From assembly GCA_963524875.1 (NCBI GenBank), contig CAURHF010000008.1:2977-66976 (forward strand): 64,000 nt of DNA. The letters are read 5' to 3'. Position 1 is the first letter of the stretch. Each line of letters starts with the position of its first letter. This document shows positions 27,001 through 33,000 of this stretch, piece by piece. The position numbers are program-made. The DNA comes from an uncultured Fusobacterium sp. GTDB taxonomy: Bacteria; Fusobacteriota; Fusobacteriia; Fusobacteriales; Fusobacteriaceae.

Positions 27001-30000
27001 CTTTTAAATAAAGATAATAATATTTATACTTTTGAATGTGATAATAAATTAGCAATGGTATATTTTGCTCAATTCTTTTCATTGATTGAAATTTTAGAAC
27101 CACAAGAATTGAGAGAAAAGCTACAAAAAGAATTAGAAAATACATTAAAAATATATAAAAATGAGGAGGAAAAAGATGTTTAGTTTGAGGGGAAGTAGAA
27201 AGAAAAAAACAGAGGAAATTATTAAGAAATTTTTAAAAAGTTATGCAGAAAATGAAAAGAGCCAAGATAAAAAAGATTTAAAAACTTGGTTAATTTCAGA
27301 ATTACAAAATGAACTGCCTAATAAAAAGGCGGAAGATATAGAAAAGATAGCAACTGAACTTATAACAGGAATTGAAATCTATTACAAAAAGAAAAAAGAA
27401 GTTGAGAAGTATCAAAGTGTAGGAATAACTAATGGGGATTATATTGGAAATGAAATATTGGAAAAAGTTGCTGATGAAATAGAAGAAGCAGAAATCATTG
27501 ATACAAAAGAAGTTATTGAAGATATGAAAGAAGCAAGTAGTATTCTATCTAACTATAATGAGGCTATGATATATGAAACTGCTGCTATAAAGGAACCTCA
27601 ATTAGTTGCCAATGTTTTAAGTGCTAATTCTGTAAATAATTATGTTGATAGTGTAAATACTGTAATAGATAATGCTAATAAAATTATGATGGAAAGTGTA
27701 ACAACAAAAGCAGGAAATATAAATCAAAATCCAAATTTAGATGGTTTTATTTTTGAAGAATATCATGCAGGAACATTTAATATAGATGCAACAGTTAAAC
27801 AAAAATCTTATCATGCAGAAGCATTAAAACCAGAATTTGGAGAAACTTATGGTAAAAATTCTATTGACCTCATTATAGAAGATACAGGCAAATATGTTAA
27901 AAAATATTCAGCAAAAGCCTATAAAAATGCTAATGAAAGTGCAAAGGCATTTTATGATAAAGTAACAGGATATAAATATAAATTTCAATCAAAATTAGTT
28001 CCAACAGACCAAACAGGAGATATTAGTAATTCAGTTGATAAAATAAAATATGATAATGTAGAAAGTAAAGGAATAACTAAGGCAGAAATTAAAGATATTC
28101 AAAATGATTTACAAAGTGGAAATAAAAAAGGAGATATACTTAATTTTAAAAAAGATGTTAATACTATTTCAATATCAAAACAAATAGGTAAACAAGCTAT
28201 GCTTAATGGGACTATGGGAGTTGGAATAGGAATGGCAGCAAATATTGGAGTAAATCTTATTACTGGAAAAGAAGTTGAAGCAGAAGAAGTTATTGAAGCA
28301 GGAATTAAGACAGGTGCTTCTATGGGAATAGCAACAGCTGTTGCAGGTGGAATAAGAGTTGCTGTTGAGAAAAAAGTTATTCCAACAGTATTTTCAAGAA
28401 TGCTAACAAATAACACCATTGGAGCAATAGCAGCAGCTTCTATGGATATAATAGGAACAGCTTTTAAATTAGGAAGTGGAGAAATAAGTTTAGGGCAAGC
28501 AGTAAAAGATGTAGGAAAATCACTAGGAGCAGCTTACGGAGCAATAGTAGCATCAGGTTGGGGTTATGCTGGAGGAATGGCAATAGCTGGAATGATAGGT
28601 TTGGGAACAATAGGAGCAGTTGGGACTATATTAGGAGTTGGAGTTACAATAGTAGCTGGAGCAGTATGTGCAACAGTAGGAAGTAAAGTTGGAGGAGCAA
28701 TAGCAAATGGAATAGGAGCAGTGGCAGGGGCTATTGTTGATGGAGCAGTAGGAATAGTCAAAGCAGGTAAAGAAGTAGTAAAAAGTGTTGCTAGTGGAAT
28801 ATGGAATGGAGTTAAAGCAGTTGGTAGTGGAATAGTTTCAGTTGGAAAATCTATAATTAGTGGGGTAGGGTCTCTTATTAGTGGAATTGGAAGTTTTTTT
28901 GGAGGACTTTTTGGTTAGTAATTTTAATTTACATATTAAATAAAAATTTAGGAGGGTAAAAATGGAAACAAATTTAATTAAGTATTTAAGAGCAAGAAGA
29001 CCAATAATTTGGGTGAATAGTGCAGATTATAAGGAAATTGACACTATTGTTAAAGAGGCAACAAAGGATTATCAAGATAAAGCTATATATGAATATAGAG
29101 CTTTTGGGGCAGTAGATTTTGAAACTAAGGTAAAAGAAGAAACTATAAGTGATTTATACAGTTTCTTAGATACTTTGTACTCAGAGGGGATAAAGACTAA
29201 TGTATTTTTATTAATTAAGAATGCAGAAGAAGAAATGAAAGATTCTAAAAATATTGCCTATATTAAAAAGATAGCAGAAACAAGATATTCAAGTCCAGAC
29301 TATAATTTTACAATAATAGTTGTAAGTGAAACTGAAATAGTACCAAAAGAATTAGAAAAATTTACATCAATATTAGATATTCCAAATATGTCAAAAGATG
29401 AAATAGAAACATATATTTTAAAATTTTCTAAGGATAATAATATAAAAGTAGATGAAAAAGATATTGGGGAAATTGCTATTTCATTAAAAGGATTAACTAA
29501 ATTAGAAATAGATCATGTACTTAATATGATAATTGAATCAAAGAATAATATTTCAATTTCAGGTAGAGATATAATTATAAAAGAAAAAGGGCAAATAATT
29601 AAAAAATCATCAATATTAGAAATAATAGATTTTAAAGAAAAAATTGAAGATATTGGAGGTTTAGAAGGTTTAAAAGAATGGCTTAAATCTAAGGCACAAG
29701 TTTTTAGAAGATTAGATGAAGCTAAAAAGTTTGGAGTGGATACACCAAAAGGAGTGTTACTTGTTGGAATGCCGGGTTGTGGGAAAAGTTTAGCAGCCAA
29801 AGCTAGTGCAAGACTTTTTAATGTACCATTATTAAGATTAGATATAGGAAGATTATTAGGTAAATATGTTGGAGAATCTGAACATAATATGAGAGTGGCA
29901 TTAAAAACAGCTGAATCAATAAGTCCTTGCATACTATGGATAGATGAAATAGAAAAAGCCTTTGCAGGAATAAATCAAGATGGAGGAGCTAGTGATATAA

Positions 30001-33000
30001 CTAAAAGATTATTTGGACAATTTTTAACTTGGTTACAAGAAAAAGAAAATACAGTTTTTGTTGTTGCAACTGCTAATGATATAACCGCTTTTCCTCCTGA
30101 ATTTTTAAGAAAGGGAAGATTTGATGAAGTATTTTTTATAGATTTTCCTAATGAAGAAGAAAGAGAAAGAATATTTGAAATTCACTTAGAAAAAAGAGGA
30201 AAACTTACAGATGACATTGATATAAATAAATTAGCAAAGCAAACAGAAGGATATTGTGGAGCAGATATAGAAGAAGTTGTTAAAAATGCTGTTGAGAATA
30301 TTTTTATACTTGAAACAGAAAATGAAGAAGAAAAAGAAATAACAACTCAAGATTTATTAGAATCAGCTAAAAATATTGATTCATTAACAAATATTTTGGT
30401 GGATAAGATAGAAGTTTTAAAGAAAAGTTATGATAAATTTAAAATTAAATCAGCTTCTAAAAAATTACCTACAAGTCAAAGAATAAAGAAAAATAAAAAA
30501 GGAAAATCAGGAACTCCTACATTTAGAGATATGATAATAGTAAATGGAGGAAAATATACACCATCATTCTTTAATGAAGAAAGAGAAGTTTTTGATATAG
30601 AAGTGTGTAAATATCCAGTAACTCAAGATATGTGGATGGAAGTAATGGAAGAAAATCCATCTGAATTCAAAGGGGGAAGAAGACCAGTAGAAAGGGTTTC
30701 TTGGTGGGATGTCTTAGAATATTGCAATAAGTTAAGTGAAAAATATAACTTAGAACCTGTTTATGATTTAAGTAAAAAAGAAGAAGGGGTTTTAAAAATA
30801 AATCAATTAGGAGGAGAAGCAGAATATCCTAATATAGCAGATTTTAGAAAAACTGAAGGATTTAGATTACCTACAGAATTAGAATGGGAATGGTTTGCAA
30901 GAGGAGGAGAAATTGCTGTCCAAGATGGAACATTTAATTATATTTATTCAGGTAGTAATAATATAAATGAAGTAGCATGGTATGAAAAAAATTCAGGTAA
31001 ACAAACTCATGATGTAGGAACTAAAAAGCCAAATCAATTAGGATTATATGATTGTACTGGAAATATATGGGAGTGGTGCTATGATACGGATACTTCTGGA
31101 TACATATCAGAAGAAACATCTTATATATATGATGCAAGTCAAAATGGAAGAAGGCTAAAAGGGGGCTCTTGGTATCATAGTGAATATTATTTTTCTATTA
31201 GTGAAAGATATAGGTCCTATAATGCTTCAAAAGATTATTATTTTGGATTCCGTATAGTTAGAACTATTTAGATTTTTATACTATTAAATATATTCCCCTC
31301 TGGAAATGAGGGGAAATTTATTGGAATAAGGGGAGATATTTTAAATGCTTGAGAAATTAAAGGAATATTGGAATAAATATAAAAAATATATAATAGCAAT
31401 ACTTATTTTAATAATGGGAGTATTTTTATTAAATTTTATCTTTGTTATTACAGATTGGATTGCTGGAAAAGGTTTTAATTGGAAAGCAATTTTATATTCT
31501 CCTGTTTCTAATGAAGAATGGTTATCATTTATTGGAAATGGGATAGTAGGCTTGGCAACACTATTGTTGTTTTGGATAGCAAAGAAAAGCTTTGAAAATG
31601 AAAGAAATAAAGTAAAGTATGAAAATGAGATGAAGAAAATAGAAAAAGAAAAAGAAATAGTTGAGGAATATTTAAATACACTTGACATAAATGAAGTTTA
31701 TAACTTAGTTACTTTAACTTTTGGAACTTCATTTCAGAAAGATTTTAAGAGTGATAAGGAAATAATGAAAAATATTACTTCTAGTAGAATAGAATTCATA
31801 AAATGTATTAATTTAACAAAAATAAAATTAAATTACAATACAAATTTTAAGGTTTTAATAAAAAAAAATTCATTAGAAAATGAAGAAGAAGAGTGTGATA
31901 ACAAAAAATATAAAAGTTTAGAAAAAAATATAAACGATAAATTAAATTATTTATATGTTATACATACAAAAATTTTTGAAAAAATATTTAAGAAAATTAT
32001 CAAAGCTACTTACACTAATAGTTTAAAAGAAAGAAACGAAGAAATAAATTCAATCTTTTCAATAAAAGATAGTCAAATATCTAACCTTTTTTCAAAAATT
32101 TATAAAAAGTATGAAAAAAACTTATCTGATACAATAAAATTACAATTAGAAAAGGATATTAATAAAGGAGATTATAGATATCCATTTTATATTTGTTTAG
32201 ATTTAATAATAGATGAATTAATAGAGTATTTTGATAAAAGAGAAAAAGATGTTGAAGAAGAATTTAAAAAAGTAGTAAATAATAAATATTGATTATTAAT
32301 TATGAGGAGATATTGTTATGGATATGAAAATTTTAATCCCAACAGTTCTATCGATAATTTCAATAGTTGGAGGAATAGTAAACTTTTTTTATACAAGAAA
32401 AGAAAATAAAATAGGAATAATGTTTCAAAATTGGCAAGTGTATTTTGAAGAAAATAAGGAAAAAATAAGACAACAAGAAAAAATTACTGATAATATCTTT
32501 AATAAATTAAATAGTAGAGTAGGGCTAATTCCATATTTTAATATAATCTTAGATGATTCAAAAATTAAAGAAGAAAATGGGAGAATATACTTAGGAATTT
32601 CATTAATTAATATTGGAAAAGAATCTGCAACAAATGTTGGAATATGTTTAACAGAAGAAAGAAAGGAAGTTATAGTTGAAGGATATGATAAAAATCAAGG
32701 TGGTTATATTGTTTATAATTATTTAGATAAATACTATGCTATGGTAGGAGATAAAATAAGTTTTTCAATAGTAACTGATAGAAAAGAAAAAATAATGAAT
32801 GTATTTTTAAGATTTAAAATACAATACTACGATTTAATTGGAAATAGATATGAACAAGAATTTAGATTAGGCTTTTATGATGATTTTAATGGAAAGAATA
32901 AGACATATTATAATTTAAACAATATTTCAGATTTACCTAAATTAGTAGAAGAAAATAAATATAAATAGAGGTAATATAAAAAACTCTTGATTAGTAATAT

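Follow-up and report, generated by a model that had tools for sequence, protein, structure and literature searches.

Why should an AAA+ ATPase be fused to a domain that databases name as a nonheme iron enzyme, and what would such a protein do? The question is raised by an open reading frame (ORF) at 28962-31271 on the + strand of a 64,000-nucleotide stretch of DNA from an uncultured Fusobacterium sp. (contig CAURHF010000008.1 of assembly GCA_963524875.1), which was analysed as a whole and is referred to here as the window. The window has a G+C content of about 26% and carries hydroxyglutaryl-CoA dehydratase genes. Translation of the window gave exactly these limits and a product of 769 amino acids (aa), in which translation, Pfam and a structural model together show a tandem AAA module fused to a domain of the formylglycine-generating enzyme (FGE)/C-type-lectin fold. 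Its closest orthologs (86-97% identity) occur in Fusobacterium animalis, polymorphum, nucleatum and pseudoperiodonticum, where annotation is limited to 'SUMF1/EgtB/PvdO family nonheme iron enzyme' or 'AAA family ATPase'; UniRef names a Fusobacterium ortholog 'Uncharacterized AAA domain-containing protein ycf46'. The comparisons below describe instead a predicted binding tip that differs from strain to strain on an almost invariant motor, encoded together with a Gly-zipper protein and a WYL-domain regulator in what is probably a conflict system.

A hypervariable tip on a constant ATPase

The central fact about this protein, missed in the first-pass annotation of the window, is that its putative binding tip is hypervariable between strains. 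The variable patch covers aa 737-761 (31170-31244, + strand) and lies between two conserved anchors, GGSW and GFRIVRTI, the latter followed directly by the stop codon. It was delimited by entropy and allele comparison and occupies the position of the variable region in the Treponema protein TvpA. Among 121 orthologs, per-residue entropy was 2.7 bits at residues 741-760 versus about 0-0.3 bits in the ATPase, and 67 distinct versions of the variable region were counted on an ATPase core that is nearly invariant. Closely related alleles showed the same: P0037 and P0042 differ at 2 of 700 backbone positions and at 16 of the 25 variable-region positions, and P0017 and P0019 at 3 of 700 backbone positions and 10 in the variable region. 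In several pairs with identical backbones, the sole differences are N/D, N/S or G/S exchanges within the tip. At the level of sequence, these comparisons show a predicted ligand-binding tip that varies by strain and a motor that hardly varies at all.

The C-terminal FGE/lectin-fold domain

The tip is part of a domain of about aa 521-769 (30522-31268, + strand), which was identified as a non-catalytic, TvpA-type FGE/C-type-lectin fold by Pfam (FGE-sulfatase PF03781 in the C-terminal third, E = 9e-33, above the curated cut-off) and by sequence match to the structure database. The best solved relative is the Treponema denticola variable protein TvpA (2y3c; E = 7e-40, about 45% identity over 215 residues). 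True FGEs matched the domain at only about 1e-8. TvpA is a lectin-fold variable protein targeted by a Treponema diversity-generating retroelement (DGR).

According to its database name, the protein would be an ATP-dependent formylglycine-generating or C-S bond-forming enzyme, and both the Pfam FGE-sulfatase match and the RefSeq name agree with such a role. Whether the domain is an enzyme or a non-catalytic binding module, and whether the FGE catalytic Cys pair is retained, had been left as alternatives in the first-pass annotation; the binding module stood and the enzyme did not. The Cys pair is absent: in the alignment with the Streptomyces coelicolor FGE (GGSYLCHDSYC), a gap stands opposite the first catalytic Cys and a Tyr opposite the second, and across orthologs the column of the second holds C, S, Y, F, V or R. 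Moreover, an active site would have to be formed by the hypervariable patch itself, and the domain is far nearer to the non-enzymatic TvpA than to FGE, EgtB, OvoA or PvdO (E = 1e-8 or weaker). The NCBIfam equivalog models for EgtB, OvoA, PvdO and SenA scored 19-34 bits versus cut-offs of 360-500, and neither sulfatase nor ergothioneine genes are present in the operon. An enzymatic role is hardly tenable on this evidence, and for this protein the RefSeq name 'SUMF1/EgtB/PvdO family nonheme iron enzyme' misleads. The alignments place the domain in the TvpA/DGR-variable-protein branch as a predicted non-catalytic lectin-fold binding module.

The AAA motor

All motifs quoted in the first-pass annotation were recovered in the translation (GMPGCGKS, ILWIDEIE, VVATAN, PEFLRKGRFDE, VFLLIKNAEE, FTIIVVSETE, KKLPTSQRIKKNKKGKSG, VSWWDVLEYC, GNIWEWC, GGSW and GFRIVR), and its four-part domain anatomy, including the FGE assignment, was borne out by profile searches with Pfam PF00004 and PF03781. 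AAA (PF00004) matched aa 265-394 (E = 3e-29) and AAA_lid_3 matched aa 418-444 (E = 4e-9), both above the curated cut-offs.

Residues 1-225 (28962-29636, + strand) form a degenerate D1-like AAA domain without a P-loop, as delimited by hhalign, an AlphaFold model and Foldseek. Residues 76-194 match the Walker-B-to-lid part of an AAA domain in profile-profile comparison (hhalign, 90% probability, E = 1.8e-6), and no GxxGxGK[ST] motif could be read in aa 1-225. The AlphaFold model, which was built from a diverse alignment, has a predicted local distance difference test score (pLDDT) above 90 at residues 1-500. In it, the D1-like region consists of a beta-alpha-beta core and a helical lid, the fold begins at about residue 4, and no N-terminal adaptor-binding domain stands ahead of it. 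Foldseek aligned the model with the D1-D2 tandems of p97/Cdc48/NVL/AFG2 over 520-560 columns, with target-normalised TM-scores of up to 0.68. The first 230 residues or so had been taken for a Walker-A-less AAA-like domain, and this holds.

The second AAA+ domain (aa 226-500; 29637-30461, + strand) is of the classic clade, carries a lid and is predicted to be active, as judged from alignment with the CDC48 D2 domain and from conservation. Its motifs comprise Walker A GMPGCGKS, pore loop 1 KYVG, Walker B ILWIDE, sensor-1 ATAN and the Arg fingers in LRKGRFDE. In the alignment, GPPGCGK[ST], hhhhDE, ATN and RxGRxD of CDC48 D2 are all retained, and KYVG (aa 301-304) pairs residue by residue with MWFG. 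The motif residues are almost unvarying over 80 family members, entropy per column in this domain is about 0 among the 121 orthologs, and the best matches of the NTPase domain are CDC48, PAN and FtsH. Between this domain and the lectin fold runs a flexible, Lys-rich linker (about aa 501-520; 30462-30521, + strand), recognised by its sequence, KKLPTSQRIKKNKKGKSG, and by pLDDT values below 50 at residues 504-520. Neither a signal peptide nor a transmembrane (TM) segment can be recognised in the protein, whether from its sequence or from its model.

Residues 1-500 are shown by these data to be a p97-like tandem AAA module of a Ycf46-like family with a degenerate D1; D2 retains the ATPase motifs and the substrate-threading pore loop, that is, a motor predicted to be competent for translocation. 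A scan of 1.8 billion cluster representatives showed the same module of about 500 aa to be widespread and often stand-alone. In other lineages the same ATPase is C-terminally fused to TPR/Sel1, LRV/HEAT or BNR repeats or to an FGE domain. C-terminal binding domains thus appear to be interchangeable on this ATPase between lineages, which was counted in favour of the sensor-motor reading set out below.

Origin of the variation

Whether a DGR is responsible for the variation was examined in the DNA of six alleles of one class (L001, L004, L099-L102), taking codons 737-760 as the variable region. The complete F. animalis genomes CP077192.1 and CP084143.1 carry alleles of this class. None of the 23 invariant variable-region columns contains A, versus 844 of 1912 invariant columns elsewhere in the gene; the corresponding p of about 2e-6 is an estimate (0.56^23). 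Variable positions fall at codon positions 1+2 and 3 in a ratio of 39:10 (91:205 in the rest of the gene; p = 1e-10), and four-fold codons end in Y or R in a ratio of 23:2 (156:213 in the rest of the gene; p = 8e-7). Every residue seen at a variable position can be reached from an AAY codon. L001 and L100 share the same sequence over the 108 nt directly upstream and differ at 19 of 75 variable-region nt, 15 of these differences involving A. NNT codons alone were discarded as evidence of a DGR, being the default in a 26%-GC genome, and were replaced by the four-fold-codon and A-column tests. These statistics show the six-allele class to carry the apparent footprint of adenine-specific, template-driven mutagenesis, as made by a DGR.

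The variation could also have arisen differently, the tip being an old balanced polymorphism under diversifying selection that is shuffled by recombination between the anchors, among strains or FGE-only paralogs, with the AAY pattern as a fossil from a DGR-targeted ancestor. Between the allele classes there are indels of up to 38 aa and unrelated loop sequences, neither of which adenine mutagenesis can make. Recombination must contribute to the differences between classes. The backbone of L001 and L100 is a mosaic, with about 5% divergence in the 5′ part versus 0% directly upstream of the variable region. The class to which the window's allele belongs, represented by three alleles only, does not clearly show the adenine footprint (16 of 41 invariant columns contain A, without depletion) and shows an excess of variation at codon positions 1/2.

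The searches for DGR components likewise weigh against a DGR and favour recombination. An A-tolerant scan of the 64-kb window and of the 10 kb around about 20 FGE gene ends found no template repeat. A crude motif scan (YxDD + GNxxSQ) for a DGR reverse transcriptase (RT) found none in the six frames of the window or in 90 loci with 10-kb flanks, and the Pfam tables of the neighbourhoods examined contain no RVT domain. In three Fusobacterium genomes the conserved 3′ anchor occurs once only. When the 3′ end of the variable region was sought with a degenerate pattern, there were five matches in genome contigs, one in each of the three Fusobacterium genomes and two in contigs of non-Fusobacterium metagenome-assembled genomes, and none in viral contigs. 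The inferred template (TGG AAY AAT AAT AAT AAT AAT TGT AAN GTT ATC AAT NGT AAT) was not found in viral contigs either. The lone viral-contig match to a scaffold-only pattern (L105) lies in a T-rich phage region and was dismissed as a chance match. Phage and plasmid collections returned no Fusobacterium record, either in tblastn with the FGE domain or in blastn with the variable region.

FGE-only paralogs of about 260-277 aa, with the GGSW and GFRIVRTI-stop anchors of the ATPase fusion, are present in Fusobacterium contigs (three clustered at L087 2297-7003, others in L085 and at L091 4717-5532), and were counted in favour of recombination. They adjoin an N-acetylmuramoyl-L-alanine amidase gene; loci L087 and L091 contain the amidase and hypothetical genes and no RT. 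These tandem paralogs were tried and rejected as donor cassettes, since they are nearly invariant between samples, unlike the alleles, and do not match them.

Three features of the alleles themselves speak against recombination. The six alleles differ almost only where A occurs; position 3 of their four-fold codons is fixed as T/C, which is unexpected under ordinary mutation, selection or recombination; and near-identical backbones such as P0037 and P0042 carry very different variable regions, all within the AAY set. Balanced polymorphism with a fossil pattern is a possible explanation, if a doubtful one. For the six-allele class, a DGR acting in trans, now or recently, is the best reading, short of proof.

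The partner protein G585

The gene directly upstream (27161-28918, + strand) encodes a protein of 585 aa, here called G585, for which the ORF and a homolog alignment indicate a helical region at the N-terminus, a conserved domain in the centre and a Gly-zipper region at the C-terminus. It has no match in Pfam, NCBIfam or PADLOC and no sequence or profile relative among solved structures. Its orthologs are all annotated 'hypothetical protein', and large homolog searches gave only close Fusobacterium orthologs. The structure predicted from a shallow alignment reached a pLDDT of 33.

The central domain (about aa 185-300; 27713-28060, + strand) was defined from an 18-sequence alignment by the pattern NPNLDGFIxExxHAxxFN ... 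GKNS(V/I)D..I.D ... Y(Q/S)xK ... Y..Q..LVP..Q. E199, N233, S234, D236, D241, Y249, K252, Y273, Q276, P281 and Q284 are invariant in this alignment, which extends down to 27% identity. The order E ... D ... (Q/S)xK resembles that of a PD-(D/E)xK nuclease core and might hint at such a fold. The Gly-zipper module (about aa 338-581; 28172-28903, + strand), delimited by hhalign and hydropathy, contains two Gly-rich hydrophobic segments near the C-terminus (aa 472-508 and 514-532). G585 homologs gave weak Pfam matches to Gly-zipper_Omp/YMGG, C19orf12-like and DUF6861.

The first-pass annotation had linked the ATPase to this upstream membrane protein (its '27176 protein'), and the link is upheld by distant relatives, in which homologs of G585 or of its Gly-zipper half adjoin the ATPase. 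In gut, rumen and sludge bacteria, G585 homologs stand next to ATPases that are 43-52% identical and lack the FGE domain; in relatives from other bacteria (40-52% identity), the ATPase adjoins homologs of the Gly-zipper part. A profile hidden Markov model detected an adjacent G585-like gene in 23 of 47 ATPase loci with enough flank. One distant ATPase subclade has the operon order 230-aa gene, 370-aa gene, ATPase. The stand-alone family of about 230 aa is homologous to the Gly-zipper half of G585 (hhalign 98.3%, E = 2e-14, 204 columns), so that the invariant pairing is that of a tandem-AAA ATPase with a Gly-zipper module. Gene order and homology show the ATPase family to be genetically tied to a protein of putative Gly-zipper membrane type.

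Other observations concern the two genes and the FGE domain. One metagenomic contig (L027) carries two tandem pairs of ATPase and G585-like genes at 5956-9010 and 9974-13089, indicating duplication of a two-gene module. At L043 2076-8836, the fusion occurs in split form, as a stand-alone N-AAA ATPase with three separate FGE-domain genes around it. One of the three belongs to the 370-aa family and has its own C-terminal FGE domain (E = 2e-33); as the domain sits there on a different component, it must have joined these systems at least twice. G585 evolves faster than the ATPase: between L014-L016 and the window, identity is 60-65% for G585 versus 86-87% for ATPase residues 1-500.

Operon and genomic context

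The first gene of the operon (26335-27183, + strand) encodes a WYL-domain transcription regulator of 282 aa, identified with Pfam (WYL, E = 2e-9; WCX, E = 2e-3, below the curated cut-off) and PADLOC (WYL model, E = 6e-22). Pfam detected no N-terminal helix-turn-helix (HTH) in it, and it has no relative among solved structures. Its 3′ end overlaps the start of G585 by 23 nt (27161-27183). A terminator scan found a GC-rich hairpin (TTCCCCTC-TGGAAAT-GAGGGGAA) followed by a T-rich run at 31293-31315 (+ strand), 22 nt past the ATPase stop. It is the only terminator-like site on the + strand in 26000-34200 and is kept in five of six compared alleles. From the overlap of the WYL and G585 genes and the position of this sole terminator-like hairpin, the operon was taken to be WYL-G585-ATPase. 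DGR targets usually carry a hairpin downstream of the variable region, and the hairpin at 31293-31315 could alternatively be of this kind.

The WYL gene lies directly upstream of the G585-ATPase pair in all Fusobacterium loci with enough flank, and WYL genes are near four to five of 18 distant loci. The trio occupies at least three chromosomal sites in Fusobacterium. The cargo behind it varies by strain and consists of Abi_2, DUF4238, Gp49/HTH, ParE, MNT/HepT, an AAA_21 ATPase or, in the window, two small membrane proteins. Neighbours of the 18 distant loci include BREX (BrxB/BrxC), AbiE, LeoA/LeoBC, PsyrA, several PADLOC candidate families and WYL regulators. The pattern of the conserved 3′ anchor matched no more than three species-representative Fusobacterium genomes, which marks the gene as accessory. 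The Fusobacterium operon is shown by this context to sit in a variable hotspot of defence genes.

The two small membrane proteins downstream of the operon (31345-32292, 315 aa, two predicted TM segments; 32318-32968, 216 aa, one TM segment; both + strand) have no match in Pfam, NCBIfam or PADLOC, and the 315-aa protein is only about 50% identical between strains. They were considered and rejected as core components, as the terminator separates them from the operon and they are replaced in many strains (Abi_2, DUF4238, Gp49/HTH, ParE, AAA_21). Because other strains have other genes in their place, they look like separate defence-island cargo. Further downstream, an overlapping pair (33076-33396 and 33380-33763, + strand), found in some strains only, encodes an MNT nucleotidyltransferase/HepT RNase toxin-antitoxin system (Pfam NTP_transf_2, E = 6e-13; HepT-like, E = 2e-14; PADLOC candidate PDC-S09).

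Some features of the surroundings are recorded here for completeness. In L020, a 418-aa AAA + Peptidase_M41 protein (3452-4708), FtsH-like but short and with IetA-like PADLOC matches, is encoded about 5 kb upstream of the ATPase-G585 pair, and a WYL+WCX regulator is encoded at 7931-8989. In L004 (F. animalis CP077192.1), the island is flanked by an IS110-family transposase gene between two HGD-D dehydratase genes and by an IS605/TnpB element near ruvC (3944-5119 and 16500-17603). Elsewhere in the window, four tandem paralogous genes of about 190-213 aa at 2432-4864 (- strand) appear as the direct-repeat families D1 and D2 (62-72% identity). A 48-nt tandem repeat at 7788-7883, inside the ORF 7305-7913, encodes a Met/Lys/Asp-rich peptide repeat (MMNDKGMKDTMMKDNH-like).

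Proposed function

The three genes are proposed to form a WYL-regulated sensor-motor-effector conflict system, probably directed against phages; we infer defence from the genomic context and put the probability of this reading at roughly 0.55. The variable tip would bind an invader protein or another intracellular ligand in the cytoplasm, the ligand being expected inside the cell because the ATPase protein has no evident signal peptide or TM segment. Binding would be coupled to an ATP-driven ring, predicted to be hexameric, which might thread and unfold the captured target. Alternatively, the ring might remodel G585 so that its Gly-zipper helices enter the membrane and halt the infected cell; the first-pass annotation had suggested remodelling, possibly of this neighbour, and we still infer it. 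The opposite logic could also apply, with the motor restraining a toxic G585 until the sensor is engaged, and the data cannot separate the two. The WYL protein would hold the operon repressed until a signal of stress or infection arrives. Taken singly, each specific mechanism is tentative and rather unlikely.

Several findings count against a defence system of this kind. Neither the ATPase nor G585 reaches the curated threshold of a validated defence family (IteA_antiphage, 95 versus 510 bits). The putative effector role of G585 and its membrane insertion are suggested by no more than hydropathy and weak Gly-zipper matches, its structure model having reached a pLDDT of only 33. The distant AAA-FGE relatives P0126 and P0144 lack a G585 neighbour and lie among housekeeping genes. 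The last point would suit a housekeeping or stress chaperone pair, in which a Ycf46-like unfoldase maintains or extracts a Gly-zipper membrane protein, with the lectin-fold domain binding a variable ligand of endogenous or environmental origin, such as a sugar or cell-envelope precursor. Ycf46 homologs in cyanobacteria and plastids, in which no part in defence would be expected, fit such a pair as well, as do the many stand-alone family members of about 500 aa. A housekeeping role is, however, difficult to reconcile with the accessory nature of the gene, its different chromosomal sites amid variable defence and toxin-antitoxin genes, and its pairing with a WYL regulator. The extreme strain variation of the binding surface is typical of conflict, and the expected ligand is intracellular. 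The chaperone pair is accordingly judged improbable, and a conflict system is preferred.

In its most ambitious form, the conflict system would represent a family of immune systems in Fusobacterium and its relatives, in which a p97-like unfoldase carries an anticipatory antigen receptor, and a DGR at another genomic site or on a mobile element diversifies this receptor in trans; a phage protein would be unfolded, or the Gly-zipper partner made into a membrane pore. This combination of claims is speculative and unlikely to hold in full. If it were true, an antibody-like variable receptor would be wired directly to an unfolding machine in a cancer-associated human pathobiont. The orphan DGR footprint also raises the question whether remote or lost retroelements diversify chromosomal immune receptors.

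The locus has practical value too. It supplies an example in cultivable, genetically tractable species of the Fusobacterium nucleatum group, relevant to periodontal disease and colorectal cancer, and offers dozens of natural receptor variants on a constant motor, so that the proposal is directly testable. A defence system of this type would shape the host range of Fusobacterium phages and hence phage therapy, and would show an unfoldase, rather than a STAND switch, reading out a variable receptor.

Comparison with known systems

As far as the literature searched shows, three previously unlinked subjects are connected here: the uncharacterised Ycf46-like AAA family, an unannotated family of Gly-zipper partners, and DGR-type variable domains. 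No mention of DGR targets in Fusobacterium was found in that literature, nor was a description of the p97/Ycf46-like tandem-AAA carrier, its Gly-zipper partner, the WYL-headed operon in Fusobacterium defence hotspots, or the orphan DGR-type footprint. The fusion as such, which the first-pass annotation had considered unusual, is not new, because AAA-ATPase-C-type lectin (CLec) DGR targets have been reported in bacteria from the candidate phyla radiation (Paul et al. 2017, as cited in PMC10907252). As described in the citing article, the ATPase is N-terminal to the lectin fold there as it is here; the likeness is one of description, and the host in the present case is a human oral Fusobacterium.

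With TvpA, the C-terminal domain shares the fold, the position of the variable patch at the C-terminus and the lack of the catalytic Cys pair. One Fusobacterium allele class shows the adenine-specific, AAY-type variation of DGR variable proteins, and the classes also differ by indels. The cognate RT, accessory gene and template repeat of DGR systems were not found for the Fusobacterium gene in cis or in the collections searched.

As to the motor, the D1-D2 tandem fold, the D2 motifs and an aromatic pore loop are common to the Fusobacterium protein and the type-II unfoldases p97/Cdc48/VAT. The Fusobacterium protein differs from these in lacking the D1 P-loop and the N-terminal double-psi barrel, and has its ligand domain at the C-terminus instead. 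To Ycf46, an AAA protein of cyanobacteria and red-algal plastids, it is alike in UniRef name and in the size of about 500 aa of its N-domain/AAA part; Ycf46 proper has no lectin-fold domain. Among defence proteins, IetA of the IetAS system is the closest named ATPase in PADLOC and NCBIfam and the best PADLOC match of the AAA core (E = 8e-30). The NCBIfam IteA_antiphage score stays at the 95 bits given above versus a cut-off of 510, the operon encodes no IetS-like protease, and IetA has neither a D1-like nor a lectin-fold domain. In BrxR/CapW-type WYL-regulated defence operons, a WYL + WCX regulator likewise heads the operon, and the Fusobacterium regulator is presumably a repressor.

The closest parallels in logic are found among NTPases with lectin-fold sensors. 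STAND (nSTAND1/NACHT)-CLec DGR targets place variable lectin-fold sensors on NTPases (Doré et al. 2024, PMC10907252), and NTPases with such hypervariable 'antigen sensors' have been predicted from genomes and not experimentally characterised (Doré et al. 2024, PMC10907252). FGE-sulfatase sensors have also been described on STAND proteins (PMC12803255), and MoxR-vWA ternary systems use FGS sensors, which always have the other domains on their N-terminal side (Kaur et al. 2020, PMC7159879). In all of these, as proposed here, a (hyper)variable TvpA-like domain sits at the C-terminus of a nucleotide-driven switch or motor, with effectors alongside. The Fusobacterium NTPase is instead a classic-clade, pore-loop tandem AAA+ protein that does not have the STAND core (NACHT/NB-ARC/nSTAND), and its partner is a Gly-zipper protein, whereas the STAND and MoxR systems work with vWA, VMAP, peptidase, TIR or nuclease effectors.

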